In this document: positions 8,347 through 54,679 of the stretch, piece after piece
How the letters are laid out: the number at the start of each line of letters is the position of its first letter
Position numbering within the stretch: position 1 is the first letter of the stretch
Source: Escherichia phage phiWec181
Strand: one strand, 5' to 3'
Sequence record: LC739534.1
DNA: 64,000 nucleotides
The notes under the pieces: generated by a model
Database searches by the model: none
What the model was told of the DNA's origin: nothing
The model's input: only the letters and a program-made list of their open reading frames with translations
Translations under genes and position numbers: made by a program

Positions 8347-8676
8347 ATGGAAATTACTACAGAACAGGCTCTTATCGACGAAGGGCGTAAAATCTTAGAG
8401 AAGCATTTGGGAGATATACATCAAACCCCTGGCTACTTAGGGTGGCGCATGGTTGAAGCTGTAGATTTCCTTCCTCGTACAAAACAAGACGTTGAAATGC
8501 GTTCTCTGTTCTTGCTTGTCAAAGTAGACGGGGATACGCCTTTCAAACTCGCAGCTTCACACATTGAGAAGGTGGAGGAGAAAGCTTATTCAGAGTTTGC
8601 CGAACTCGTATTACAGGAGGATCTCGAAGGGAAGGTAAACATTTTTATTTTTCTGGATTTTGAGGAGGAGATATGA
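8347..8676 (+). CDS. hypothetical protein (109 aa)
   Basis: SD GGAGGAAGGA upstream. Confidence 0.5.
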   Translation: MEITTEQALIDEGRKILEKHLGDIHQTPGYLGWRMVEAVDFLPRTKQDVEMRSLFLLVKVDGDTPFKLAASHIEKVEEKAYSEFAELVLQEDLEGKVNIFIFLDFEEEI

Positions 8677-9410
8677 TTTTATATAAAGAGATTACCGTGG
8701 AGCAGGATCAAGACCTCTTCATCATCGGGGACTTACATGGTTGCTACGATCTTTACTTGAAAGGTAAGAATTATCTTGGTATCCGAGATACAGATGTGGT
8801 TGTGTCTCTCGGAGATTTGACAGATCGCGGTAAACAAAACTTCAAATGTGTTGTGGAATTTACACGCAAAGAGAATCGTTATGCGCTTTGTGGTAATCAC
8901 GAAGATATGATGATTAAAGGCTTACTGGAAGGGGATCGTCGTTACTACGAATGTTGGTATCAGAACGGTGGTCATACAGTGTTGGCAGAATGTGATGAAG
9001 AAGGCTCTACATTACTTGCTACGATGGTCGAGGACAACCCTGTGGTTTTGGTTGTGAATTACCGAGGTATGAAGTTAGGGTTTATTCATGGCGGATATCC
9101 TTCCTCTTTTGAATATATTCCGCTGACAGACATACCGCACCTACGTATGAACAAAGCAAGAGAGGCTACTTTTGCTGAAGCTTTGATGTGGGATCGTGAC
9201 ATGGTGGAGTGTGCTAAAGAAGGTATGAAACTTCCGGTTGTTATGGGTGTTGATTATGTGTTTCACGGGCACTCTTATGTGAAAGAACCTTTGATCAATG
9301 CTAATCGTGTTTATATGGACACTGGGTCTGTTTTCAATAACAACTTAACGTTTGCCTATTTTGATGCAGACGGTGGACTTCAGTTTTATTCAACTTTACA
9401 GGAGGATTAA
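8673..9410 (+). CDS. Ser/Thr protein phosphatase (calcineurin-like metallophosphoesterase)
   Basis: Ordered GDLHGC, GDLTDRG and GNHE metallophosphatase motifs. Confidence 0.75.
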   Translation: MILYKEITVEQDQDLFIIGDLHGCYDLYLKGKNYLGIRDTDVVVSLGDLTDRGKQNFKCVVEFTRKENRYALCGNHEDMMIKGLLEGDRRYYECWYQNGGHTVLAECDEEGSTLLATMVEDNPVVLVVNYRGMKLGFIHGGYPSSFEYIPLTDIPHLRMNKAREATFAEALMWDRDMVECAKEGMKLPVVMGVDYVFHGHSYVKEPLINANRVYMDTGSVFNNNLTFAYFDADGGLQFYSTLQED

Positions 9411-9711: not shown

Positions 9712-10290
9712 ATGAGCAACCTATTTTACACAGGCGTGGGAAGTCGAGAGATAACCCACGAAGAATGGGATTTAATGGTCGCTGTAGCAAAGTGGTTGGC
9801 TAACTGTGGTTTTACTTTACGTTCAGGTAATGCAAACGGTAGTGACTCTGCTTTCGAAACAGGTGTGGAAGAATCCAAAAACAAATCTCTCAAGGAGATT
9901 TATATCCCTTGGGAGAAGTTTGAAGGCAATGATATTCCAGGTGAGAAAATAGTTCTTGCTAAACCTGACAGTATGAACTATGCTATCAGTCTCCAGTGGA
10001 TAAAGGATATTCATCCGGCATTTGATAAATTGAAACAAGGTGCACGTAAATTGCATCAACGTAACGTTCATCAGGTGTTGGGACAAGATCTGGAGCATCC
10101 AATTCCTTCTTTGTTTTTACTGGCTTGTTCCAAAGAAGATAAGAAGGGAGACGTTATGGGTGGAACACGGACGGCGTGGCTCATCGCTAAAGCTAATAAC
10201 GTTCCATGTTTTAACTTACGTGGTAAAACAAAGGAAGAACTTTATGCTTTTCTTAAACCGTTGGTCAAGGGGGCAATCAGTGGCAATTAA
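9712..10290 (+). CDS. SLOG/DprA-like Rossmann-fold protein (putative nucleotide-binding)
   Basis: GVGSREIT...LRSGNANGSDSAFETG resembles the DprA/Smf GxR...SGxAxGxDxAAH core; assignment tentative. Confidence 0.4.
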   Translation: MSNLFYTGVGSREITHEEWDLMVAVAKWLANCGFTLRSGNANGSDSAFETGVEESKNKSLKEIYIPWEKFEGNDIPGEKIVLAKPDSMNYAISLQWIKDIHPAFDKLKQGARKLHQRNVHQVLGQDLEHPIPSLFLLACSKEDKKGDVMGGTRTAWLIAKANNVPCFNLRGKTKEELYAFLKPLVKGAISGN

Positions 10291-14483: not shown

Positions 14484-15148
14484 TGACCCATTTAAAACCT
14501 TTTGGTGGAAAACCTATTGTGGCGTATCAAGTAGATCGTGATGATTGGGAAGGCAGTGTAGTTGTCTTTGGTAATCATTTCTTTGCTGTGCGTCGTAAAG
14601 GCGCAAGCATGTTAGATTGTGAGGAGGAGTATTGTCATGTCTCCCGTGCCAAAGAATTCGACCAGTATGTAGAAAAAGGTTTTGTGCCTGTCAAAGCTTT
14701 ACTGGAGGCAGGATGGTGGATACACTCTGCTCATGATGGTGTTAGACTTGACGAGTCTGTAGATAGTCTTGAGGCAGATTTTGACGAATGTGAAGATGGC
14801 ATGTATATTGAGGGGGATCTTGTATTTTCCCTTGACGAGAAAAGTGTGTGGAAGAACTGGGAAGAAATGGAACGTCACGCGCATTTTATCAATGATGCTT
14901 TGATTCGTAAAGCTTGGTTCACGGAGGCGGTGAAGGTAGCGTATCCGCAATTCACCTTTACAGAGGTTTGGGGCGGTCCACACCACATCACCCATACAGC
15001 ATTTTTCGACTTCCCTGGTTCACGTTACAAAGGTAATGTAATGTGGGACTGGGATGAGAATGAAGTACCATCTGTTCAAGACTTTCGTTGTTATGTTTGC
15101 CAAGGCGATCAAGAAGCCCTTGACAAATACCTGCAAAGTCTGGTATAG
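14480..15148 (+). CDS. hypothetical protein (222 aa)
   Basis: SD AAGGAGG upstream; start overlaps previous stop. Confidence 0.5.
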   Translation: MMTHLKPFGGKPIVAYQVDRDDWEGSVVVFGNHFFAVRRKGASMLDCEEEYCHVSRAKEFDQYVEKGFVPVKALLEAGWWIHSAHDGVRLDESVDSLEADFDECEDGMYIEGDLVFSLDEKSVWKNWEEMERHAHFINDALIRKAWFTEAVKVAYPQFTFTEVWGGPHHITHTAFFDFPGSRYKGNVMWDWDENEVPSVQDFRCYVCQGDQEALDKYLQSLV

Positions 15149-15164
15149 TGCCAGCATCTGAACA

Positions 15165-15194
15165 AAGCCTCCTGCTTCAGGGGGCTTTTCTTTT
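15165..15194 (+). terminator. rho-independent terminator
   Basis: AGCCTCC...GGGGGCT hairpin followed by TTTCTTTT. Confidence 0.5.
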
Positions 15195-15206
15195 ATGGGA
15201 GGAAAT

Positions 15207-15701
15207 ATGTTTCAAGTAGAAATTCATGTGCACAACAGTTGTTCAAATTGCGAAACTTGTGGTTACAATAGTTCAACCATGATCACTGTTAGCGGAGACT
15301 TAGGACATGCCAAGTTTGGCGAAGTCGCAAGCTGCTTCAGCGGAGAGGATGCAGATTGGCATGATATTGCTTTGTGGCTATGCGGAAGACTGAATGTAAA
15401 TTGTAAAGACTTCCCTGAACTGTTGAGCCGAAATCTTATTGATAGTCGGGAACAAGCCTACAATATTTATGCCGCTTCTGTTTATGTTGATCATAAATGG
15501 GTAGAAGATGAAGAAGCTGAACGTTTGCTGCGCCTCTACTACGAAGCAGAGGAAGCTTATGATAACTATTATAGCATGTCCAACATTCTACGCTTGTTTG
15601 CAGAGTTTGATATTTACTTTGAAGTGAGTTATTCTGAAGAGGAAGTGTATGATTTTGATGACGATGATTACGAGGAGGATGAAGAATGCCAAGACGATTA
15701 A
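15207..15701 (+). CDS. hypothetical acidic protein (164 aa) with N-terminal Cys cluster
   Basis: SD GGGAGG upstream of ATG 15207; CSNCETCG motif; highly acidic C-terminus. Confidence 0.5.
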   Translation: MFQVEIHVHNSCSNCETCGYNSSTMITVSGDLGHAKFGEVASCFSGEDADWHDIALWLCGRLNVNCKDFPELLSRNLIDSREQAYNIYAASVYVDHKWVEDEEAERLLRLYYEAEEAYDNYYSMSNILRLFAEFDIYFEVSYSEEEVYDFDDDDYEEDEECQDD

Positions 15702-16486
15702 TAGTGATCAGCGGTGCTGGTCTAAGCGCCGATAGCGGTGTACGTACTTTCCGCACTGATACAGATAGCGGGAAAGCTTTGTGGGATGAATACGACCTTT
15801 CTGAAGTGTGCGATATTTTCAATTTCCGTGCTGGCTACCAGCAAGAACAATGTGTTCCTGGCGCTGCTGGTGGATTAGATGCAGAGGGATACAACCTCTA
15901 CCGTAAAACTCACGACTTCTACAATAAACGTCGCGTAGAGATGGATAGTGTGTCTCCTAACGCTGCGCATTACCAGATCGCAGAGTGGTTCCAAGAGTAC
16001 GGCTGCGATCGTGTTATCAACATCACAACAAACGTAGATGATCTTCTGGAACAAGCAGGGGTTGTTCATGAAGATGTTCTGCATGTTCACGGCTTCCTGC
16101 CTGAAGTGATTGTAGACAATAGAATCATCAAGGATGTTGGTTATGCTGCTATTGATGTAGATGATTACAAGTATGTGAAGCCCAATGTAGTGTTCTTTGG
16201 GGAGACTGCCCCACTGTATAACGATATGTACCACATCTTAGACGGCTTGACGGCTCAAGATATGGTGGTTGTAGTGGGCTGCTCTAATCAAGTGATCAAC
16301 TTCAACTGGGATTTGTTCCCAGCCCTCAACATAGGAACAAAGATGGTCGTAGTTAATCCTGGGGTTAATTACGAAGAAACACTTCTCTATGAAGATCGTG
16401 GAGTTTTTGTTTACCGAGAAAAAGCTGCAACAGCCTTCAGTAATGAAGGTTTCATTAAAATGATCGAAGACCACTTAAACAAATAA
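15686..16486 (+). CDS. SIR2-family (sirtuin-like) NAD-dependent protein
   Basis: N-terminal VISGAGLSADSGVRTFR matches sirtuin GAGISxxSGIPxFR; HVHGF resembles the catalytic His region. Confidence 0.7.
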   Translation: MPRRLIVISGAGLSADSGVRTFRTDTDSGKALWDEYDLSEVCDIFNFRAGYQQEQCVPGAAGGLDAEGYNLYRKTHDFYNKRRVEMDSVSPNAAHYQIAEWFQEYGCDRVINITTNVDDLLEQAGVVHEDVLHVHGFLPEVIVDNRIIKDVGYAAIDVDDYKYVKPNVVFFGETAPLYNDMYHILDGLTAQDMVVVVGCSNQVINFNWDLFPALNIGTKMVVVNPGVNYEETLLYEDRGVFVYREKAATAFSNEGFIKMIEDHLNK

Positions 16487-16493
16487 ACCAACC

Positions 16494-16518
16494 AAGGGGC
16501 TACGGCCCCTTTCTTATT
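16494..16518 (+). terminator. rho-independent terminator
   Basis: AGGGGC-TACG-GCCCCT hairpin followed by TTCTTATT. Confidence 0.6.
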
Positions 16519-16529
16519 AGGAGATTACT

Positions 16530-16802
16530 ATGCAACAAGAAACTTTCGATTTTTATCTCGCCAATTACGTCTACTACTTCTCTAATGGTACACAGAAAGG
16601 GGAAGGCAACCTTTACCTGGCTACCAACACTGGAGCAGGTGTTCGTAAAGCCAATATTGATTTAGCAAGAGAAACAGTTCGCTCTGGACTGGAAGAGACG
16701 CTTGAAACTCCCGTTGTTGTGGTTATACAAACTATCAGTTACCTTGCAACTTGTACTAAAGAAGATTTTGAGGCTCCTCAAACGCAATCTAACGAAGCAT
16801 AA
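16530..16802 (+). CDS. hypothetical protein (90 aa)
   Basis: SD AGGAG upstream. Confidence 0.45.
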   Translation: MQQETFDFYLANYVYYFSNGTQKGEGNLYLATNTGAGVRKANIDLARETVRSGLEETLETPVVVVIQTISYLATCTKEDFEAPQTQSNEA

Positions 16803-24996: not shown

Positions 24997-25324
24997 GCTG
25001 CACCTCCTCCAGACGGTCATACACCCAAGCAAGACGATCGAAGTTTTTGTGTTGGGTGCCGGACTTCTTCTCAATCCAATAACAAGGAATCCAACCTGAC
25101 AGATCCCACTCGCCATCGAACGGATAGTTCCATTCTAAACCTTCCGCTTCAAACTGCTCTACCATTTCATCAGAAAGGGAAATATACAAATCTTGGTCTT
25201 CCCCGCAATACACTTCCACTGCATGACACAAACCGCAAGCTTTGATGTTTTCGTGCGGATCTTGGCCCATAGCCTGATCCAACCACCACTCATAAAACTC
25301 CAGTAAAGCTTCACTTGATCTCAT
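24980..25324 (-). CDS. paralog family A member
   Basis: Family A pattern (LLEFYEWWL...GLC...YPFDG...RLAWVYDRL); SD GGGGAGGGGAAG upstream. Confidence 0.6.
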   Translation of the reverse strand: MRSSEALLEFYEWWLDQAMGQDPHENIKACGLCHAVEVYCGEDQDLYISLSDEMVEQFEAEGLEWNYPFDGEWDLSGWIPCYWIEKKSGTQHKNFDRLAWVYDRLEEVQHGKEK

Positions 25325-25697
25325 TTTCTTCCCCTCCCCCTTTTCCAATAAGCGGCGAAGCCGCGATCATCGACTTATAGACAACTTCGGCTGTTCGGGT
25401 TAGCCCCGTCCAGTCCTTCGCTGCCTCCAACATTTCTGGGGTAGGCTCTTTCGGGACCAAGACATACCCTTCTGGGACACACATCCCACTCTCTTTCTTT
25501 TCGGCTTCTTCCGACATAACTTGCCACACTCCATAGCTGCAATTCTCGAACAAACAATAGAGTTCAGATCCTTCATCATCCACGACAATGAAACAGTTCT
25601 CATCTGCTACTTTGGCATTATAGATCCGACCTATGGTCAAATAGTCTCGGACATTAATAAACTTAGAGGCAAGAAACTTCACACGAATGTTTTTCAT
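25311..25697 (-). CDS. hypothetical protein (128 aa)
   Basis: SD CGGAG upstream. Confidence 0.5.
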   Translation of the reverse strand: MKNIRVKFLASKFINVRDYLTIGRIYNAKVADENCFIVVDDEGSELYCLFENCSYGVWQVMSEEAEKKESGMCVPEGYVLVPKEPTPEMLEAAKDWTGLTRTAEVVYKSMIAASPLIGKGGGEENEIK

Positions 25698-25933
25698 TTC
25701 TTAAACTCCGAAAAGCAACCCAAAGAGATGACCCCGCCATTATAGACGATAGCAAACTGGCACCCTGTCTTTGTGTCTGTGATGATGTAATCTAAAGCCC
25801 CAGTCATGCCAGTTTGAACAAAGCGATCCTTGGTTACAACTTTTGAGTCCGAGAAGCCGTTAACTTTCGGCACAGTGTCTGCCATAACAGTAGGAGTCAC
25901 CAGAAACAATGCGATCAGTAATGCCTTTTTCAT
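25694..25933 (-). CDS. small secreted protein (79 aa) with signal peptide
   Basis: MKKALLIALFLVTPTVMA signal-like N-terminus; SD TGGAGGG upstream. Confidence 0.5.
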   Translation of the reverse strand: MKKALLIALFLVTPTVMADTVPKVNGFSDSKVVTKDRFVQTGMTGALDYIITDTKTGCQFAIVYNGGVISLGCFSEFKK

Positions 25934-25944
25934 AAACCCTCCAG

Positions 25945-26259
25945 TTAGCCTTGAAATGAATTGCGACGACCAATACGGGCACAGCGATCACCTTCATAAG
26001 AGGTGAAATCCAGACTCACTCGGAAGCCAGGGTGGGTATCAGAGATCCCCACATTCTTCACCCACATCTCGAAACTGCCGATATGTAAGGTCATAATGTT
26101 TACATACCATTCCAGCGTCACTTCTGTGCCGTCTACGCCTGTGATGTAGAAATCACGAGCGAAATGGGTGTCGTGCTTCTGTTTCTGACGCTCATACTTA
26201 GCGATTGCACCTTTCTCAACAGCCGCTTTCAGGATCACTTCTAACTCTTCTATTTGCAT
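25945..26259 (-). CDS. hypothetical protein (104 aa)
   Basis: SD AAAGGAGAGAGA upstream. Confidence 0.5.
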   Translation of the reverse strand: MQIEELEVILKAAVEKGAIAKYERQKQKHDTHFARDFYITGVDGTEVTLEWYVNIMTLHIGSFEMWVKNVGISDTHPGFRVSLDFTSYEGDRCARIGRRNSFQG

Positions 26260-26288
26260 GTTCTCTCTCCTTTATTGTTGATGCAACC

Positions 26289-26317
26289 ACTATAATATGT
26301 CTGACACTCTCTGTCAA
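26289..26317 (-). promoter_or_regulatory. sigma70-type promoter
   Basis: Minus strand TTGACA, 17-nt spacer, TATAGT upstream of CDS 25945..26259. Confidence 0.4.
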
Positions 26318-26529
26318 ATGTTTTCTGCTTCCAGCACTACTCTTTGGATCTGCACGTCATCAATGTTTGCGAGACAATTCCCTAAAATAAGCCCTGCTCG
26401 GAAAGGGGCTTGGAACTTGGAGGAAGCCCCCACTCGAATAGAATACTCCACACCGCACATAACATAATCTACACGGTACATATTCAAGCCCATGAACATG
26501 AGTTCTTCTTCCGACTCTTCGATTTGCAT
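26314..26529 (-). CDS. hypothetical protein (71 aa)
   Basis: SD AGAGGAGA upstream. Confidence 0.45.
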   Translation of the reverse strand: MQIEESEEELMFMGLNMYRVDYVMCGVEYSIRVGASSKFQAPFRAGLILGNCLANIDDVQIQRVVLEAENI

Positions 26530-26541
26530 TTTTATCTCCTC

Positions 26542-27096
26542 TTAGTTCCAACTAATAATGATGTGTTTGATAACCCCAAAAACGCTATATTCCGCTGTTG
26601 TCAACGTTACATCTAAACCTTTTGCACGCAACATTGCGGCTACTACATTCACCCCTTCTTTCTGTTTATCCATCTCTTCGTAAGAAGAAGGGCTGTTACA
26701 CAAACCAAAACTCGAAGGTTCAAAATATTTTTGGAATTTTCCCTGTTCTGCATAATCTTCAATCTCCAGCAGAACACAGTCTACCATTTCAGTAAAATGG
26801 GAATTTGCTTGCAGTGCTTTACTACGTAGTTTATCACGTAAACTTCCCACAAACCCTTCCTGATCTTCTGTTTGCTCTACTTCACAGAAAGGATGAAGTT
26901 CAGCCCAGTCCCAAACGTCTCCCTCTAAAGCAAACGTTGTGTTGTAGTTGAAGAAGGTGCAACGTGGAAGTTCCCCGTTGAAAGAATCCTTCAGCAAAAT
27001 GTATTTCTTACCATTTGCGTGGAAGAGTTCCCCTTTGATAACCTTGCCTTTCTGGATATCGCTGTCGGTGGAACGGGTGCAGATAAACTGTTTCAT
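26542..27096 (-). CDS. hypothetical protein (184 aa), paralog family B (C-terminal domain)
   Basis: C-terminal FEPSSFGLCNSP...AMLRAKGLDV resembles CDS 33333..33635; SD GAGAGGAGAA upstream. Confidence 0.55.
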   Translation of the reverse strand: MKQFICTRSTDSDIQKGKVIKGELFHANGKKYILLKDSFNGELPRCTFFNYNTTFALEGDVWDWAELHPFCEVEQTEDQEGFVGSLRDKLRSKALQANSHFTEMVDCVLLEIEDYAEQGKFQKYFEPSSFGLCNSPSSYEEMDKQKEGVNVVAAMLRAKGLDVTLTTAEYSVFGVIKHIIISWN

Positions 27097-27150
27097 GATT
27101 TTCTCCTCTCTGTTTCGATGAGATGATTATGACAAAGACAGATCCTTCTG

Positions 27151-27477
27151 TCAACCAATTATTTCTTCTGCTATACGTTCTTTTACCCAGTTCACACGAT
27201 CCACATTCAAATGACAACGGCTTCTTTCCGCTTCTAAGGTGTACTTTCCAAAATTACTGTTGAAAGGCAACACCATAACCAAATCTTTGCGGTAGAACTG
27301 CTCATGCATTTCATCCAGTACAGGTTCGTATCGTTCGCTTTCCCCCATATCGTAAAAATCATAGAGGTTCGAGCACAAACCTGTGCAACGGGTGAACGGT
27401 TCACCTTCAGGAGCACCAGCTTCCAACCATGCCAAATACGTGCGGTAAAATGTTAATAGTTCTTCGCTCATTTCCAC
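27151..27477 (-). CDS. paralog family A member
   Basis: Family A pattern (LLTFYRTYLAWL...GLC...LPFNSN...HLNVDRVNWVKERI); SD AAGGAGAG upstream. Confidence 0.6.
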   Translation of the reverse strand: MEMSEELLTFYRTYLAWLEAGAPEGEPFTRCTGLCSNLYDFYDMGESERYEPVLDEMHEQFYRKDLVMVLPFNSNFGKYTLEAERSRCHLNVDRVNWVKERIAEEIIG

Positions 27478-27680
27478 TCTCCTTCATGATAGTAAACCTC
27501 AAAAGAATAGTAAGTGAACATGCTCATTGTAACACCTCCCATTTCTGGATCAACGGAAGTGTTGTTATACATGTCAACTACTGCCTGACCCGCTGCTTTG
27601 GCATGTGCTGCCGAATCACAGGCACAAACATCTTTCTCCCACGGAAACTTGCCATCATACTTAAGACGGACAATCCACAT
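27468..27680 (-). CDS. hypothetical protein (70 aa)
   Basis: SD TGGAGGAA upstream. Confidence 0.45.
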   Translation of the reverse strand: MWIVRLKYDGKFPWEKDVCACDSAAHAKAAGQAVVDMYNNTSVDPEMGGVTMSMFTYYSFEVYYHEGEWK

Positions 27681-27682
27681 GA

Positions 27683-27910
27683 TTATTCCTCCATCTTAAA
27701 CCATTGAGGGAATACTTTACGGAAGACACGAGTTGCTTCCAAAAGGAATTCCAATTCTTTTTCCCGATCTGCGTTCCAACCGTGTACTTTAACATTGATC
27801 GCCAGTGCATCAGCGCGCTGACTCAATGCTTGGCAAATCGGATCGCGCAACACTACCGCATCATAAAACTGACAAACAGCTTCAAGTTCATACCAATTAT
27901 AAGCAGCCAT
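27683..27910 (-). CDS. hypothetical protein (75 aa)
   Basis: SD AGAGGAGAA upstream. Confidence 0.45.
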   Translation of the reverse strand: MAAYNWYELEAVCQFYDAVVLRDPICQALSQRADALAINVKVHGWNADREKELEFLLEATRVFRKVFPQWFKMEE

Positions 27911-28236
27911 TATTCATTCTCCTCTGCAATACGATCTTTAACCCAATTAATCCTGTCCACGTTCAGGTGACAGGCATCTGCATCTGACTCTAAAACATAT
28001 GCATCGTAGTTCTCATTGAAAGGGAGTTCTTGACTCAACCCTTTATAGTGGAACTGTGCGTGCATCTCATCTGACAAGGTTATTATAATGAGATTGAAGC
28101 CATCCCTGTGCACATAATCGAACAAGTTGGCACACAAACCCACACTTGGCAGAAACGGTCTGCCATAAGGAGCACCATTTTCAATCCATGCCAGATACTT
28201 TTTGTAAAACTTCATCAACTCTTCACTTGTTTTCAT
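27910..28236 (-). CDS. paralog family A member
   Basis: Closest relative of 27151..27477 (…GLCANL…HLNVDRINWVKDRIAEE); SD GAGGTGG upstream. Confidence 0.6.
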   Translation of the reverse strand: MKTSEELMKFYKKYLAWIENGAPYGRPFLPSVGLCANLFDYVHRDGFNLIIITLSDEMHAQFHYKGLSQELPFNENYDAYVLESDADACHLNVDRINWVKDRIAEENE

Positions 28237-28474
28237 TTAGCCACCTCGTCAGTTTTTCTTGCTCTTTGTTTGCGCGTTCTAAGCTTCTAAACTTTAAACA
28301 AAGGGGAAGAGTATCCACACCCATGCACAAGCTTTTATCTAAGCTGTGCTCCCCAACCAACCAAAGAGAATATGTTTGAACATCTAACCCATAGTTTCTG
28401 TCTTTCCATAATCTCACCCCAAGAACATCAAAAGGCGCTTCCGCGACTAAAGAAAGAAACCGATCTTTATTCAT
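28223..28474 (-). CDS. hypothetical protein (83 aa)
   Basis: SD GAGGTGG upstream. Confidence 0.45.
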   Translation of the reverse strand: MNKDRFLSLVAEAPFDVLGVRLWKDRNYGLDVQTYSLWLVGEHSLDKSLCMGVDTLPLCLKFRSLERANKEQEKLTRWLNENK

Positions 28475-28475
28475 G

Positions 28476-28820
28476 TTACACCACCTCTACCACATGAATG
28501 GACACATCGTCACGGTAGTATTTATCATCCCCGTAAATCTGGCCCAAACGTACACATGCGTCGTAGATAGAAAGGGCTGGGATCTGATAAGTTTTAATAC
28601 TGCCGTTATCTTTTGTATACCGGATCTCAAAAAGACGCATCACATCTTCAGCTACCACCTCAAAAGTGGCGCAGCCCATTCTCAACTCAATAACACAATC
28701 TGTTCCGTCATCACTATTGATCCAGTAGTAGTCCACATCCTCGTCTGTATTTGTCACAGGGTATTGCTTACCAACAGTGAAATATGGAACGGAAGATGAT
28801 ACGCACAAAAGTTTAGTCAT
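28476..28820 (-). CDS. hypothetical protein (114 aa)
   Basis: SD AAGGAGAGAA upstream of ATG 28820; ORF-track start 28877 lacks SD. Confidence 0.5.
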   Translation of the reverse strand: MTKLLCVSSSVPYFTVGKQYPVTNTDEDVDYYWINSDDGTDCVIELRMGCATFEVVAEDVMRLFEIRYTKDNGSIKTYQIPALSIYDACVRLGQIYGDDKYYRDDVSIHVVEVV

Positions 28821-28848
28821 TTTTCTCTCCTTATTGTCTTGATGTGGT

Positions 28849-28877
28849 AAGCATACCATACAGAAATCAGGTGTCAA
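28849..28877 (-). promoter_or_regulatory. sigma70-type promoter
   Basis: Minus strand TTGACA, ~16-nt spacer, TATGCT upstream of CDS 28476..28820. Confidence 0.35.
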
Positions 28878-28880
28878 GCT

Positions 28881-29081
28881 TTATCGACACAGATAGTTGT
28901 AACGATCTGCTTTATCCTCTGCTTCAGCAAAGTCAGCAATCAAGGAAGTTTTGAGTTCTTCCAACTCTTTCACCCAAGAGTCGTAATCGCTCTGTGTTTC
29001 CCCGATGGTTTGGAGAAAACAATCGTCGTAGCCAATAGACATGGCTAACTCGATAATACGTTCCAGTTTTTCTTCCATCAT
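28881..29081 (-). CDS. hypothetical acidic protein (66 aa)
   Basis: SD GAAGGAGAGA upstream. Confidence 0.45.
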   Translation of the reverse strand: MMEEKLERIIELAMSIGYDDCFLQTIGETQSDYDSWVKELEELKTSLIADFAEAEDKADRYNYLCR

Positions 29082-29602
29082 TTCTCTCCTTCTACAGATT
29101 CTTGTTTAATATGATAATAGGCACCCCGTGCCAGATACACTTCGTGTTCTACATCGCTGATCGGGAACCCATCAGGATTGGAAAGTCCTTGCTCAATAGT
29201 GAGAATAAGGCTTCGCAAACTAAGAGCCAGCAATTCTATACGTGCTTCAAGCACACGGTTGTGTTTACGAGAAATATCGTAGTTGCACTGTGCTTCCTTC
29301 CATTGTTCGGTGGCATGTTCCGCTACACGCAGAAGAACAGCTTTCTCCTGTTCAGCTTTAGATACTTCCCAGTTCACAGAAGTGTCAGCAGGAACAAGAA
29401 TGAAAGGTTCTTCTTTCTCTCCCACAACAGACCAACGCCCCAGCTTACTATCTTTCAATGTATCCCACGCATAGTCCCCATCGTCACAAGTAAATCGGAA
29501 TACCTCTCCTTCCTTGGCCTCCCATTCAGCCTCGTAAGTTTTACCAGTGGTAACAAAGGAATGTTTAGAGAGACTACAGTAAACAGCGAATACCTTGCTC
29601 AT
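29078..29602 (-). CDS. hypothetical protein (174 aa)
   Basis: SD GAGGAGG upstream. Confidence 0.55.
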   Translation of the reverse strand: MSKVFAVYCSLSKHSFVTTGKTYEAEWEAKEGEVFRFTCDDGDYAWDTLKDSKLGRWSVVGEKEEPFILVPADTSVNWEVSKAEQEKAVLLRVAEHATEQWKEAQCNYDISRKHNRVLEARIELLALSLRSLILTIEQGLSNPDGFPISDVEHEVYLARGAYYHIKQESVEGEK

Positions 29603-29844
29603 TCTACCTCCTCATTAGAAATTACAGACAAAGAGAGCGTAGCAAAACCTACAGAGATTGCTCGCCCCTCATCAATAGCTTCGTTAATCATATAACTTAC
29701 CAAACTGGTAGTAGCAAAATCACCATCTTCAGTAAGGCGAAACACTTCTTGATCCGGTTCGGTGATGAAAGGCAGAAGGTATTCTTTCTTTGTATCCAGG
29801 AAACGTACTACATGGAATAAACGGGTTTTATTTCCGTAAGACAT
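29599..29844 (-). CDS. hypothetical protein (81 aa)
   Basis: SD AAAGGAGAGA upstream of ATG 29844. Confidence 0.4.
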   Translation of the reverse strand: MSYGNKTRLFHVVRFLDTKKEYLLPFITEPDQEVFRLTEDGDFATTSLVSYMINEAIDEGRAISVGFATLSLSVISNEEVE

Positions 29845-30109
29845 TCTTTCTCTCCTTTGCTTTTGGATACTCCCAACCCTCTGGGAGATCTTCGTTAAGC
29901 ATCCACTCAAAAGGCCAGCGACAATAGCTATGCCACTTTCCATCCAAGTAGAGGCAATCTTCATCTACTGGTCCACAAGGATTGATAACTACAACACACC
30001 CTTTTGCTCGCCAATACTGAACTATTTCGGGGTAAAAACAAGAAACATCAGTCCACTCCCAAATACGTTCATCATTCAAACGATACGCTGCTGGTAATGT
30101 TTCTTTCAT
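29828..30109 (-). CDS. hypothetical Cys/Trp-rich protein (93 aa)
   Basis: ORF; weak SD AGAGG. Confidence 0.45.
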   Translation of the reverse strand: MKETLPAAYRLNDERIWEWTDVSCFYPEIVQYWRAKGCVVVINPCGPVDEDCLYLDGKWHSYCRWPFEWMLNEDLPEGWEYPKAKERKNVLRK

Positions 30110-30113
30110 CCGA

Positions 30114-30560
30114 TCAAACCTCTGTCAAAGAGAAACGCCAATCTTTACTACTACCCACACCAAGGAAGTAATAGTCTCCGGTACTAACGGAAATACGCCA
30201 AGCGGAAATCCAGTCAGGAATCTCTGGCTTATGGCTGTAGCCATAGCGATCACCACTTGAATCTGTTGCAATATAATTAACAAATTCAGGCACATCTAAA
30301 GTTTCACCTTGATACTCTACACGCTTGAAGCCATCTTCCACTTGTTCCTCCCCTTCTACCAGAAGGGCAAGAAGCTGAATGTGCGGACAAGTGAAATCTT
30401 GCCCTGGATAACGTGAACGGATATCTGTAAGCAGAGCGATCACCGCGTCTGCCAGATTTTGGTAATCTTCATACTTCACGAACGTCCCTTTTGTAGGATC
30501 ATCCGAACACAAAAGCCAAGCGTCGTTCGGATTCACTCCATAATGTTTAACTTTAGACAT
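30114..30560 (-). CDS. hypothetical protein (148 aa), paralog family D
   Basis: YEDYQNLADAVIALLTD resembles YDDYQKLAEATSWLVSML of CDS 33121..33333; SD AGGAGGG upstream. Confidence 0.5.
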   Translation of the reverse strand: MSKVKHYGVNPNDAWLLCSDDPTKGTFVKYEDYQNLADAVIALLTDIRSRYPGQDFTCPHIQLLALLVEGEEQVEDGFKRVEYQGETLDVPEFVNYIATDSSGDRYGYSHKPEIPDWISAWRISVSTGDYYFLGVGSSKDWRFSLTEV

Positions 30561-52591: not shown

Positions 52592-53119
52592 TTATGGTAT
52601 TTTGGCTGGGAACAGGATTTTAATCAGATTGTTGTGGTATTGTCCTAAAAGATTCTGCCCTTTCCAGTTGGCAGGATTAAGCACCCCTGGTTCGTACATA
52701 CCCATTCCAATTCCGTAAACCTTATCATAAGGACTCGCCTCAACGAACGTTTTGAATTGGTACAGTCGCAAGTCAGAATAAAGATCAGGGTTCTGTGTAT
52801 ACTTCAAGCATAAGCCTCGCATTACGATACGCTCTCGGTACTCTTCCCACATGTCATTATTAAAACCAGACACCGCTCGACCCATGCGCTTGTAGTATGC
52901 CTGTCCCTTCTCGTCGTCACGCTTCATTGAGTGATCAAGGATAGCTGCTGCGATTACCTGATCCTTGAACAGCAAAGCCTTACGCCACATCATGTATTGC
53001 TCTACACAACAGAAAGTTTCATTGTACCCTGGTTCCGTCTCTGTGAATGGTGCAATGTACCAATTGCTAAACACATCTTTATGTGAAAAGAAGAATACAT
53101 ATTCATTAGTTATTCGCAT
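52592..53119 (-). CDS. NADAR-domain protein (YbiA-like, NAD/ADP-ribose processing family)
   Basis: N-terminal FFFSHKDVFSNWY and overall ~175 aa layout resemble NADAR/DUF1768 (YbiA). Confidence 0.65.
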   Translation of the reverse strand: MRITNEYVFFFSHKDVFSNWYIAPFTETEPGYNETFCCVEQYMMWRKALLFKDQVIAAAILDHSMKRDDEKGQAYYKRMGRAVSGFNNDMWEEYRERIVMRGLCLKYTQNPDLYSDLRLYQFKTFVEASPYDKVYGIGMGMYEPGVLNPANWKGQNLLGQYHNNLIKILFPAKIP

Positions 53120-53307: not shown

Positions 53308-53673
53308 TTAGTCCATCCACCAGTAGCCATAAACTGCGTCTGCGTCGATGAGTTTGTGTTTGTTGTTCCGCATGTAGTCTAAGATAAGTAGACGTTTATT
53401 GTATCTGGAGAGATTATGACCCTCTTTTCCGCCATAGTCAAAATATTTTGCAAGACTTTTACACTCAAACAAAATCAGTTCGGGAGTTTCTTCACATTGG
53501 TCTGTCTGGTACACTTGACGGATGATCATGTATACGTCATCGTCTTCCGCTAAGTGCTCTACTGGTCCACACCCAGCAGGAATAAATTCATAGTCCCATC
53601 GAATCAGATGTTTCTCTACTGCTTCAAAGAAATCCATTTTTTCGCTACGCATGATCTGAACATCAATTAACAT
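53308..53673 (-). CDS. hypothetical protein (121 aa)
   Basis: SD CAGGAGGAAAA upstream. Confidence 0.5.
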   Translation of the reverse strand: MLIDVQIMRSEKMDFFEAVEKHLIRWDYEFIPAGCGPVEHLAEDDDVYMIIRQVYQTDQCEETPELILFECKSLAKYFDYGGKEGHNLSRYNKRLLILDYMRNNKHKLIDADAVYGYWWMD

Positions 53674-54679
53674 AATTTTCCTCCTGTCTCATTATTCCAC
53701 CTGCTTGGTTGATAGCACTTAAGACAACAGCCAAATCCTCACGCAGGAAGGTTTCACTATGACCGTCTTTCATGTGCAACGCTTCCACACAGCCGATAGA
53801 CGGTAGGATCTGATCAGTCTTAGATTTTAGCTTACTCTCTAACGCCCTGCAAGCCTGGTAGGACGGCAGATCAAACAATGCTACACGTTGCATAAAGTAG
53901 TTATTATTTGCATTCTGAATCTTCAAACGTATATCACTATCCTTTGCAATCCCCAGCTTGAAAGCTCCCGTATCTTCTCCATACTCATCAAGGATAACGT
54001 TGATGTAAAATTCTTGCTGTGATCTGCCTTTACATTCAGAACAACCATTCCCACTTAGATACTTATTAGGTGTTATCGTTTGTTCTCCGTGCTCACTACA
54101 TAAATATTTAAACTTAGACATGGTTCCCACCTTACCAACGAACCCTATAAACTGGTCCCCTCGTTCCTGGCAAGCTTCAGTCATACGGAAAATCCATTGC
54201 GCAGGAGTGTAACGATGGTTTTTAGAACAACGGCAAGCAAGCAGCCCATCTCTAAGACTGCTCCTCGTTACTTCAAACCTACCGTTACACACGCCAGCCT
54301 TTACATATTCGTCATGAGAACATACGGAACACTTAACTATCCAATAAGCCGCCCATCCTTTACTATCTAATCTATCACTACGATAATACTCACGCGGAAC
54401 GTTATCAGGACACGCTTTGTTAAAGGTTGTGATATGGATTGAATCATCAATTAAACATGTTTGCCTTATTGCTTCCACCCTACAACCTTTACAACCACTT
54501 CCTATTTTAGCATTATCTATAGAAGTTGTTCTCCATTCCCCATGTATAGAACATTCACAGGTTAGTTTAGTGCGTGCCCCCTTCCATTCACCATGCCACC
54601 CCGTAATGGTCCACGGTTTATCCTGGTAAGCTTGTTCTATTTCTTCCTGATATTCCTCCCAACTTTTAGCCCTCATCAT
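53663..54679 (-). CDS. T5orf172-like (GIY-YIG-related) domain protein with N-terminal CxxC zinc-ribbon repeats
   Basis: Repeated CxxC pairs, then C-terminal KLGIAKD...R...KDGHSETF resembling T5orf172; paralog of CDS 58247..59200. Confidence 0.5.
   Translation of the reverse strand: MMRAKSWEEYQEEIEQAYQDKPWTITGWHGEWKGARTKLTCECSIHGEWRTTSIDNAKIGSGCKGCRVEAIRQTCLIDDSIHITTFNKACPDNVPREYYRSDRLDSKGWAAYWIVKCSVCSHDEYVKAGVCNGRFEVTRSSLRDGLLACRCSKNHRYTPAQWIFRMTEACQERGDQFIGFVGKVGTMSKFKYLCSEHGEQTITPNKYLSGNGCSECKGRSQQEFYINVILDEYGEDTGAFKLGIAKDSDIRLKIQNANNNYFMQRVALFDLPSYQACRALESKLKSKTDQILPSIGCVEALHMKDGHSETFLREDLAVVLSAINQAGGIMRQEENYVN

Follow-up and report, generated by a model that had tools for sequence, protein, structure and literature searches.

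What does a coliphage do with a sirtuin of its own? The question arises from a 64,000-nucleotide stretch of DNA (the window) that matches Escherichia phage phiWec179 (Phapecoctavirus, LC739533) at 100% identity, which confirms that the gene is phage-encoded. The first-pass annotation of this locus described a sirtuin-type NAD-binding enzyme of 266 residues with no fused effector or sensor domain, and both parts of this description hold. The reading frame runs on the plus strand from an ATG at 15686 to a stop codon at 16484-16486. Its product matches Pfam SIR2 (PF02146) with 71.7 bits (gathering cutoff 24, E = 1e-19) and PHROG 2162 ("Sir2") over its full length (residues 2-266, E = 5.7e-101), and the sirtuin assignment is far beyond chance. 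In the AF2 model (pLDDT 94.8, pTM 0.91) the entire chain forms one sirtuin domain, and a Pfam scan found no second domain in the protein. The ATG is a sound start since the Shine-Dalgarno sequence GAGGAGGA precedes it by 6 nt and the N-terminus aligns with those of homologues. The protein is acidic (pI 4.6, net charge -19); the median pI of the zinc-less clade described below is 5.3. This open reading frame is a real, intact and stand-alone sirtuin gene of a coliphage. It is not the fresh find for which it had been taken but the re-identification of an annotated gene: the deposited phiWec179 genome already labels it cobB (BDU12099.1), and phage sirtuins have been known as a family from KVP40 and T5 since 2003-2005; two hypotheses on their function are in print.

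Table 1. Sequence features in and around the phiWec sirtuin gene, with the NADAR gene of the same window
Feature	Position	Strand	Basis
Promoter-like site	15120-15149	+	consensus match only
Terminator-like hairpin, 11-bp stem and T run	15164..15188	+	consensus match only
Upstream gene, 168 aa from first ATG	15195..15701	+	ORF call, homologue alignment
Shine-Dalgarno GAGGAGGA, 6 nt 5' of sirtuin ATG	15672..15679	+	sequence
Sirtuin ORF, 266 aa, annotated cobB	15686..16486	+	ORF call, Pfam, PHROG, AF2
NAD-binding motif GAGLSADSGVRTFR, aa 10-23	15713..15754	+	alignment
Recombinant patch inside sirtuin gene, ~550 bp	15740..16290	+	sequence comparison
Lineage-specific insert, aa ~51-71, small domain	15836..15898	+	alignment
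FYNKRR, aa 78-83, with class III YxxR pair Y79/R82	15917..15934	+	alignment
TTNVD, aa 114-118	16025..16039	+	alignment
HVHG, aa 133-136, catalytic H135	16082..16093	+	alignment
Zn-ribbon replacement segment, aa 137-165, modelled beta-hairpin	16094..16180	+	alignment, AF2
PNVVFFGE, aa 166-173, substrate loop/acyl tunnel	16181..16204	+	alignment
GC-rich hairpin, terminator-like on both strands, 8 nt past sirtuin stop	16494..16511		sequence
Downstream gene, 90 aa, PHROG 15991	16530..16802	+	ORF call, PHROG
NADAR-domain gene, 175 aa	52592..53119	-	Pfam

The sirtuin gene stands at the end of a rightward operon with nucleotide-metabolism genes (Table 1). The upstream hairpin separates the preceding genes of this operon from a pair formed by the sirtuin gene and a gene for a 168-residue protein with an acidic C-terminal tail. 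Five of eight aligned homologues of the latter start at M5 (nt 15207), in agreement with the deposited coding sequence. The sirtuin ATG lies inside the final codons of this upstream frame (stop 15699-15701), and this overlap suggests translational coupling. The gene that follows the sirtuin is the final one before a convergent leftward operon, and both flanking genes are restricted to Stephanstirmvirinae. No RNA-end-processing neighbourhood (RNA ligase, PNK, cREC, HAD, 2H) was found within 10 kb of the sirtuin. A NinI-type calcineurin-like phosphoesterase is encoded 6.3 kb upstream, the only one that near. The window contains no tRNA genes and the tRNA cluster of the phage lies about 37 kb from the sirtuin, and we rejected a linkage between the two on these grounds.

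Sirtuin homologues occur in about 980 of 50,697 phage records, among them T5-like, rV5-like, phAPEC8-like and KVP40-like phages, and include those of T5-like model phages and of phages in the BASEL collection. Judged by its sequence, the phiWec protein belongs to PHROG 2162, a phage-specific zinc-less branch of the class III (CobB/SIRT5-type) sirtuins: it contains no zinc cysteines, carries the TTN and DVGY motifs, and matches the profile over its full length. Iyer, Burroughs, Anantharaman and Aravind (2022) called this zinc-less phage clade a "distinct clade". Its distant relatives grade into canonical CobB-type proteins with TQN and four cysteines. In the literature searched, clade members figure in annotation-level or in silico statements only, and no biochemical assay of one was found. 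Among proteins of known structure, CobB, Sir2Af2 and SIRT5 are nearest in sequence. A Foldseek comparison of the AF2 model, which has the Rossmann and small domains of the fold, with the PDB gave deacylases for all of the best 50 matches (CobB, Sir2Af1/2, SIRT5, Sir2Tm), with E values down to 7e-16 and TM scores up to 0.85 on the target.

Alignment with CobB and with homologues from 36 viral lineages reveals which parts of the enzyme have been preserved. Positions G10, G12, S17 and R23 of GAGLSADSGVRTFR are invariant across the 36 lineages, and so is H135 (36/36); these residues, together with N116 and D118, match CobB and as a set are invariant or nearly so. The NAD+ site is conserved (GAGxS..G..FR, TxN.D, S200, N224). 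A hydrophobic substrate tunnel lined by C42, V117, V168, F171, V203 is also conserved and ends at Tyr79/Arg82; V168 and F171 correspond to V187 and F190 of CobB. Y79 (kept in 35/36 lineages) and R82 (30/36) are the counterparts of CobB Y92 and R95, the YxxR pair of class III. The TTNVD motif retains the catalytic N116 and D118 but replaces the canonical Gln of TQN by Thr. No cysteine is present between H135 and P166, where CobB has four, and the zinc cysteines are likewise missing in 24 of the 36 lineages. The segment that replaces the Zn ribbon, in which DVGY (150-153) is conserved, has modelled strands at 136-143 and 147-150. Several of the aligned clade members, phAPEC8-type proteins among them, share the insert in the small domain, which is absent from rV5-type and T5-type (HdH2) proteins, KVP40 and CobB.

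The gene also bears a detail that is new. The ~550-bp patch is 94-98% identical to phage UP17 and only 49-81% identical to phiWec188, whereas the phiWec188 flanks of the patch are 93-100% identical to the window. From this mosaic of identities we conclude that the patch was recently exchanged between phage lineages. Comparison of two divergent alleles gives a dN/dS of 0.15, which indicates purifying selection on the sirtuin.

Our best guess, with a probability of roughly 0.4, is that this sirtuin is an NAD-dependent protein-lysine deacylase that acts during infection and not an NADase of the immune type. Like its closest characterised relatives, the enzyme would use NAD+ to take an acyl group off lysine side chains, with nicotinamide and O-acyl-ADP-ribose as products. 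The acyl group may be acetyl or, in view of the Y79/R82 pair, an acidic group, for instance succinyl or malonyl. If host proteins, phage proteins or both are deacylated during infection, the phage would bring its own CobB-like deacylase and reset host enzymes that are inhibited by acylation. CobB is a deacetylase, desuccinylase and lipoamidase, and its Zn site is structural, not catalytic (PMC8556138). An earlier proposal (PMC5107563) saw in the KVP40-type homologue, whose gene is transcribed in infection, a deacetylase that activates host enzymes. The suggestion of the first-pass annotation that the protein modulates host metabolism is plausible, and it is the oldest published idea about these proteins. 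Profile HMMs detected no RNA ligase, PNK, RlaP, HAD, NAMPT or ARH among all open reading frames of the 154-kb phiWec179 genome, and the sirtuin is thus independent of RNA ligase, PNK, RlaP, NAMPT and ARH partners in this phage.

Several observations speak against a deacylase. The Zn tetrad lies along the edge of the peptide cleft; all characterised deacylase sirtuins compared here keep it, and it has been lost from the phage clade. In TQN the Gln has been replaced, and the positions of CobB Y220/P221 are occupied by I204/N205. We found no precedent for an active zinc-less deacylase sirtuin in the literature that we consulted. Moreover, the host already has CobB. Overexpression of CobB lowered the yield of T4 (PMC4271551), which also counts against this reading. 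Finally, RNA ligase, PNK or RlaP genes lie near the sirtuin in 7 of the 24 zinc-less lineages and NADAR or ARH genes in 4, a distribution that points to ADP-ribosyl transfer and to a target other than acyl-lysine. These counts stem from seeded HMM searches, which replaced a BLAST-only clustering that was too insensitive across deep lineages.

Iyer et al. (2022) predicted that exactly this zinc-less clade (rV5, Mydo, SP15, Serratia BF) repairs RNA in the manner of Tpt1/KptA, which we consider unlikely for the phiWec protein. According to this proposal, the 2'-phosphate of a cleaved, partly processed tRNA would attack NAD+, His135 would promote the release of ADP-ribose-1'',2''-cyclic phosphate, and the RNA end would be cleaned for ligation after attack by a host anticodon nuclease. 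The sirtuin mechanism, in which a nucleophile attacks C1'' and the 2''-OH then attacks with assistance of His, formally resembles the Tpt1 reaction, and a phosphate might be bound by Y79/R82. Gene order in other phages is consistent with this idea. In an rV5-type phage the genes for RNA ligase, a cREC-like protein, the sirtuin and a MazG-like protein are consecutive, with a divergent PNK and phosphoesterase; a divergent clade member has a cREC and Metallophos neighbourhood; RlaP adjoins the sirtuin in a T4-like contig, and a HAD phosphatase adjoins the T5-type gene. An RNA ligase is encoded within 2 kb in 4 of the 24 zinc-less lineages, and the 7 with a core gene (RNA ligase, PNK, RlaP) have it within 10 kb. 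However, phiWec and KVP40 are among 8 of the 24 lineages without any partner family within 10 kb, and generic neighbours are equally frequent (PhoH in 11 lineages, NrdD in 9). The genomes of phiWec179 and phAPEC8 both lack RNA ligase, PNK, RlaP and the T5-type HAD by tblastn and profile HMMs; rV5-type RNA ligase and PNK and the T5 HAD gave no tblastn match in phiWec179. The cREC, phosphoesterase and MazG-like genes that these two phages do encode are about 30 kb away from the sirtuin. The narrow hydrophobic tunnel of the lysine type is conserved, and the strong acidity of the protein would be unusual in an RNA-binding enzyme. To our knowledge, the T4-type PNK/Rnl pathway generates no 2'-phosphate. 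We found no experimental support for the repair of RNA by these proteins.

Still, a phosphate nucleophile would fit the conserved chemistry (His, tunnel, anion-binding Tyr/Arg) as well. The tunnel and the Tyr/Arg anion site might present the phosphate, be it an RNA 2'-phosphate or a similar group, to NAD+, and the exchanged patch on the substrate side might reflect adaptation to varying attack by the host. That the zinc-less phage sirtuins as a group are sirtuin-fold analogues of Tpt1, or ADP-ribosyltransferases for nucleic acids or proteins, and not lysine deacylases, strikes us as improbable.

Less probable still is a mono-ADP-ribosyltransferase for host take-over of the SirTM or SIRT4/6 type, functionally comparable to T4 Alt, ModA and ModB. 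Such an enzyme would attach ADP-ribose to host proteins or nucleic acid, and NADAR, ARH or the like would serve as erasers in trans. ADP-ribosylating SirTM systems are marked by the pairing of a sirtuin with an eraser, and phiWec179 does encode a NADAR protein: the gene reported by the first-pass annotation stands confirmed by Pfam (117 bits, cutoff 35.1, E = 1.2e-33). In one divergent T4-like contig, a NADAR gene lies immediately downstream of the sirtuin gene. This directly 3' position, an ADP-ribosylglycohydrolase gene two genes from the sirtuin in another contig, and the location of NADAR or ARH within 10 kb in the 4 lineages counted above would agree with a transferase. In the window, however, the NADAR gene is 36 kb distant, on the opposite strand and unlinked to the sirtuin, and phage NADARs have a demonstrated independent role: AdfN strips the ADP-ribose added by DarT1 from phage DNA (PMC11257639). 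The NADAR gene of phiWec is most simply seen as an independent, AdfN-like anti-DarT gene; its distance, strand and documented role led us not to adopt it as a partner of the sirtuin. Furthermore, Pfam found neither a Macro domain or other eraser nor a sensor or partner domain in the seven genes around the sirtuin, and the closest relatives of the protein are efficient deacylases, not transferases.

The first-pass annotation had drawn an analogy with immune SIR2 NADases and considered the protein as a counter-defence enzyme or a superinfection-exclusion factor. An NADase engaged in immune conflict, which would drain or remodel NAD+ pools or NAD+ signalling and so counter Thoeris- or DSR-type defences, or act as a superinfection-exclusion toxin, is very unlikely. 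The protein does have the SIR2 catalytic core with its NAD-cleaving residues, and NAMPT, an enzyme of NAD salvage, is encoded within 10 kb in 7 of the 24 zinc-less lineages, which places the sirtuin gene often in a context of NAD economy. Nevertheless, the acyl tunnel and Tyr/Arg pair conserved here would be needless for plain NAD hydrolysis. A PADLOC scan produced no meaningful match to a defence SIR2, the sole hit being a local alignment of 38 residues to PDC-S65 (E = 5e-4), and defence SIR2 structures are absent from the best 50 fold matches, which are deacylases; we rejected a defence-type SIR2 identity for these reasons. No sensor, partner or immunity gene accompanies the sirtuin, whose neighbours on both sides encode lineage-specific small proteins. 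A lytic phage relies on the metabolism of its host and would be starved by an unregulated NADase, and the reviews that we consulted describe no anti-Thoeris or anti-DSR mechanism that uses a sirtuin. We found no specific evidence for counter-defence or for superinfection exclusion. Overall, the earlier interpretation is partly supported. An inactive relic or purely structural protein, as the loss of the Zn tetrad and the TQN glutamine might suggest, is hardly credible given catalytic residues that are all invariant in 36 lineages, the low dN/dS, retention in the ~980 phage genomes from several families, and a fold modelled with high confidence.

Phage sirtuins touch NAD+, a metabolite central to many recently discovered conflicts between phage and host. 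The two published hypotheses, deacetylation of host enzymes and repair of RNA, make different and testable predictions, and the present analysis sharpens them: the CobB/SIRT5-type pocket is kept, the gene persists without RNA ligase or kinase, and its alleles, under purifying selection, have recently been exchanged. A deacylase would provide a clean case of a virus equipped with an eraser of protein acylation of its own. Action on RNA would be a new activity of the sirtuin fold, and about 2% of sequenced phages would be undoing host RNA damage.

Compared with known systems, the phage protein shares the SIR2 Rossmann core and the catalytic His/Asn with the defence NADases (ThsA, DSR1/DSR2, SIR2-HerA, SPARSA). 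Nor are these enzymes known to have the canonical Zn ribbon. In contrast to them, the phage sirtuin has only 266 residues and no fused or adjacent SLOG, TIR, HerA, pAgo or large C-terminal domain. SirTM is likewise a stand-alone sirtuin, and in a few phage lineages an ADP-ribose eraser (NADAR, ARH) adjoins the gene; unlike SirTM, the phiWec sirtuin has no adjacent macrodomain gene or other operon partner of this kind. The likeness to Tpt1/KptA, the proposed NAD+-dependent ADP-ribosyl capture of a 2'-phosphate, is a functional analogy only; Tpt1 has the unrelated fold of the ART superfamily, and the phage sirtuin is therefore not a member of the Tpt1 family. Human SIRT5, a desuccinylase and demalonylase, has the Zn module and is ~22% identical, yet it shares the YxxR pair for recognition of acidic acyl groups and matches the fold at about E = 4e-13. 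The best match in both sequence and fold is E. coli CobB (PDB 1S5P, 6RXJ; E = 2e-15; TM 0.73 on the query, 0.85 on the target), which has the NAD motifs, the catalytic His, the FGE loop and the Y92/R95 pair in common with the phage protein. The latter is, however, only ~26% identical, lacks the four Zn cysteines, has TTN for TQN and I204/N205 for Y220/P221, and contains the extra insert. It falls far below the cutoffs of the NCBIfam CobB equivalogs (97.3 vs 243 bits for the best, 79 vs 320, 71 vs 318; NF040867, NF001755 and others) and is therefore not a CobB orthologue; these differences make the GenBank label "cobB" over-specific. The closest kin are the other members of PHROG 2162 (KVP40.0043, the T5-type "Sir2-like protein", rV5-type proteins, phAPEC8 gp197), which are equally zinc-less, TTN-type and single-domain and from which it differs in no essential respect. 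From the rV5-type, the phiWec sirtuin differs in having no RNA-repair neighbours and in the ~20-residue insert that it shares with other clade members, while the phAPEC8 gene is ~80-85% identical to it at the nucleotide level.

The open reading frame of the sirtuin lies exactly where the first-pass annotation had placed it, and the SIR2 domain assigned there was called rightly: the protein scores 71.7 bits against Pfam SIR2, where the threshold is 24 bits (E=1e-19), and its hit to PHROG 2162, "Sir2 (NAD-dependent deacetylase)", is full-length (E=5.7e-101). The start codon overlaps the final codons of the preceding 168-aa ORF, and GAGLSADSGVRTFR represents residues 10–23. This region matches Escherichia phage phiWec179 (LC739533) at 100% identity. 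That phage, a myovirus of 154 kb (Phapecoctavirus, Stephanstirmvirinae), came from the sewage of a pig farm, and its record already labels the gene "cobB, NAD-dependent protein deacylase". By translated search, homologues were detected in 978 of 50,697 phage records, including phAPEC8-like, phi92-like, T5-like (Demerecviridae), rV5-like (Vequintavirinae), PVP-SE1/SSE121-like, KVP40-like and some jumbo phages. The gene is an already known member of a long-annotated phage family.

Coordinates of the sirtuin gene and related features (window numbering unless another record is named)
Feature	Coordinates	Strand	Remarks
Calcineurin-like phosphoesterase	8673-9410	+	Pfam Metallophos E=2e-11; "NinI-like Ser/Thr phosphatase" in phAPEC8
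DprA-like (Rossmannoid) weak match	9712-10290	+	sub-threshold, E=0.004; adjoins the phosphoesterase
DUF7277 + DUF7275 protein, 312 aa	11874-12812	+	E=1e-67; sirtuin operon
HNH/AP2-type homing-endonuclease-like ORF, 204 aa	12793-13407	+	PHROG 953 E=2e-25; weak Pfam AP2
Terminator-like hairpin	15164-15188		one side of 168-aa/sirtuin pair; consensus match only
168-aa protein gene	15195-15701	+	probably translationally coupled to sirtuin
Ribosome-binding site GAGGAGGA	6 nt upstream of sirtuin ATG		
Sirtuin ORF	15686 (ATG) to 16484-16486 (stop)	+	266 aa
Intragenic recombination patch	15740-16290		inside sirtuin ORF; loci L100, L101
Terminator-like hairpin	16494-16511		other side of 168-aa/sirtuin pair; consensus match only
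NADAR-domain gene	52592..53119	-	E=1.2e-33
Cys-rich protein, 338 aa, three CapR homology domains	53663-54679	-	Pfam PF21817, E=1e-26
cREC-like, metallophosphoesterase, ATP-dependent DNA ligase, MazG-like cluster	phiWec179 (L008) 25081-30245		outside window

We compared the sirtuin by alignment with members of its clade and with CobB of E. coli; 36 viral lineages (65% identity, from 87 loci), 24 of them zinc-less, served as a check. The NAD-binding motif (G10, G12, S17, R23), the catalytic N116, D118 and H135, the FGE-loop F171 and E173, and S200 and N224 are invariant or nearly so; the alignment thus shows an intact core for NAD+ binding and nicotinamide cleavage. Conservation extends to the narrow hydrophobic acyl-lysine tunnel of CobB (C42, V117, V168, F171 and V203, corresponding to CobB A76, I131, V187, F190 and V219) and to the anion-binding class III "YxxR" pair (Y79 in 35/36 lineages, R82 in 30/36). 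In SIRT5 and CobB, this pair binds the carboxylate of succinyl- or malonyl-lysine. An AlphaFold2 model (76 sequences) is very confident (pLDDT 94.8, pTM 0.91), and the 50 solved structures that it matches best all belong to protein deacylases (CobB, Sir2Af1/Af2, SIRT5 and Sir2Tm). With a pI of 4.6 and a net charge of -19, the sirtuin is strongly acidic, a trait shared across its clade (median pI 5.3). Since it scores far below every NCBIfam CobB cutoff, we can rule out a CobB orthologue. This zinc-less, single-domain protein has a CobB-like fold, is under purifying selection and is encoded among early/middle metabolic genes. The most economical reading is that it would strip acetyl and/or acidic acyl groups from lysines of host or phage proteins; to such an NAD+-dependent lysine deacylase we assign a probability of roughly 0.4.

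The sirtuin gene is second-to-last in a long rightward operon, which in phAPEC8 and phiWec179 also encodes thymidylate synthase, NrdAB, dTDP-sugar enzymes, glutaredoxin, PhoH, methyltransferases and, 6.3 kb upstream of the sirtuin, the calcineurin-like phosphoesterase. Immediately downstream, this operon converges with a set of small genes transcribed leftward, and the sign of the GC skew flips at this point, near 16.5 kb. At the left end of the window, dTDP-sugar biosynthesis genes (rffG and others) are annotated; the whole window contains no tRNA genes. The homing-endonuclease-like ORF separates homologues of phAPEC8 gp192 and gp193 and, because these two adjoin in phAPEC8, looks like a mobile insertion in phiWec179. 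Both immediate neighbours of the sirtuin (168 aa and 90 aa) are restricted to Stephanstirmvirinae and provide no functional clue. The 168-aa protein begins with a beta region that bears a conserved C..CxxC motif, also has a helical bundle and ends in a disordered, extremely acidic tail (DFDDDDYEEDEECQDD); it gave no informative fold match.

A comparative-genomics survey from 2022 recognised "a distinct clade" among the sirtuins of proteobacterial phages, for which gene neighbourhoods led its authors to predict a Tpt1/KptA-like role in RNA repair (PMC9503650). We could confirm the published arrangement in an rV5-type phage, where RNA ligase, a cREC-like gene, sirtuin and a MazG-like gene form a row with polynucleotide kinase (PNK) and a phosphoesterase divergent beside it; in a T5-type phage, the sirtuin is followed by a HAD-like phosphatase. 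Tblastn and profile HMM searches of every genome ORF in phiWec179 and phAPEC8 found no RNA ligase, PNK, RlaP, T5-type HAD, NAMPT or ADP-ribosylglycohydrolase (ARH). Both phages do have cREC, metallophosphoesterase, DNA ligase and MazG-like genes, but as a cluster ~30 kb away from the sirtuin. The phiWec179 cluster equals the rV5-type "sirtuin neighbourhood" minus sirtuin, RNA ligase and PNK, which suggests that this neighbourhood has come apart in the phAPEC8 lineage.

Partner genes up to 10 kb from the sirtuin were counted in the 24 zinc-less lineages, which are not phylogenetically independent, with no matched background and with seeds that may miss distant partner types. Of these lineages, 7 contain a core RNA-repair gene (RNA ligase in 4, always within 2 kb; PNK in 4; RlaP in 3), 7 NAMPT, 3 NADAR and 1 ARH, as compared to 11 and 9 for the generic nucleotide-metabolism neighbours PhoH and NrdD; 8, including the phiWec179 lineage and KVP40, contain none of the tested partner families. 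NADAR directly adjoins the sirtuin in one lineage only, a T4-like contig (Logan SRR14300940; L016, 4917-7181) on which the genes for RlaP nucleotidyltransferase, the zinc-less sirtuin and NADAR are consecutive and share a strand. On another contig (JGI 3300045300; L019, 4491-6729), an ARH gene (PF03747) and a zinc-less sirtuin gene stand on opposite strands, two genes apart. Based on these counts, the association with RNA repair is real yet limited to a minority of lineages, and the sirtuin gene is kept where ligase and kinase are absent. Action on an RNA 2'-phosphate, which these neighbourhoods and the loss of the zinc module keep alive but the phiWec179 genome does not support, is in our estimate unlikely; ADP-ribosyl transfer, with the same evidence on either side, is more doubtful still.

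The second gene mentioned in the first-pass annotation indeed encodes a genuine NADAR-domain protein. It lies 36 kb from the sirtuin on the opposite strand; the CapR-domain protein is encoded two genes upstream of it, on its own strand. Phage NADARs have been shown to act as orphan antitoxins (AdfN) that strip DarT1-made ADP-ribose from phage DNA (PMC11257639; also PMC11125620), and this gene is best regarded as a counter-defence candidate in its own right that should not count as evidence on the sirtuin. The immune-conflict role proposed for the sirtuin itself gained no specific support: the protein matches none of the PADLOC defence-system SIR2 profiles, its 50 best structural matches are deacylases throughout, and a plain NADase, counter-defence or exclusion factor is improbable.

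Compared with phiWec188, the flanking genes are 97–100% identical in protein (dS 0.06–0.12), whereas the sirtuin is only 79% identical (dS 0.98, dN 0.148, whole-gene dN/dS 0.15). This divergence is confined to residues ~19–200 (window ~15,740-16,290), which take in the cofactor loop, small domain and FGE loop as well as the hairpin standing in for the zinc ribbon. Within the patch, identity is 94–98% to UP17 and 49–81% to phiWec188; the flanks reverse this pattern (93–100% to phiWec188, 50–87% to UP17) in a comparison of three genomes, too few to decide on adaptive exchange. Because of this reversal, we conclude that ~550 bp within the gene were recently exchanged between Phapecoctavirus lineages. 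Such an exchange, with every catalytic residue kept in both alleles, shows what is in all probability a functional gene with co-circulating divergent alleles. An inactive relic, contradicted by conservation and dN/dS, is highly implausible. This mosaicism and selection pattern are new in this analysis.

The sirtuin represents a widespread NAD+-using phage enzyme for which competing hypotheses are now sharply testable. Members of the family have been on record for KVP40 and T5 ever since those genomes were published. A 2016 study modelled the KVP40-type sirtuin, found the zinc site absent, measured transcription during infection and proposed deacetylation of host acetyl-CoA synthetase (PMC5107563); in the literature searched, we found no biochemical or genetic test of any clade member. 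Unlike every canonical relative, the phiWec181 protein lacks the four zinc-ribbon cysteines (zero Cys between H135 and P166) and contains Thr instead of the Gln of TQN. In place of the zinc ribbon comes a short segment in which DVGY is conserved; the AlphaFold2 model has a beta-hairpin there. In 150 representatives taken from an exhaustive search of 1.8 billion proteins, both traits recur in the closest clusters, and with growing distance there is a gradual transition to canonical "TQN + 4 Cys" CobB-type sequences; the clade thus seems to be a branch of class III sirtuins that became zinc-less. Since 12 of the 36 viral lineages (L080, L085, L087-L093, L095, L097 and L098; IMG/VR contigs, several >170 kb) are canonical four-Cys, TQN proteins of the CobB type, phages carry zinc-containing as well as zinc-less class III sirtuins.
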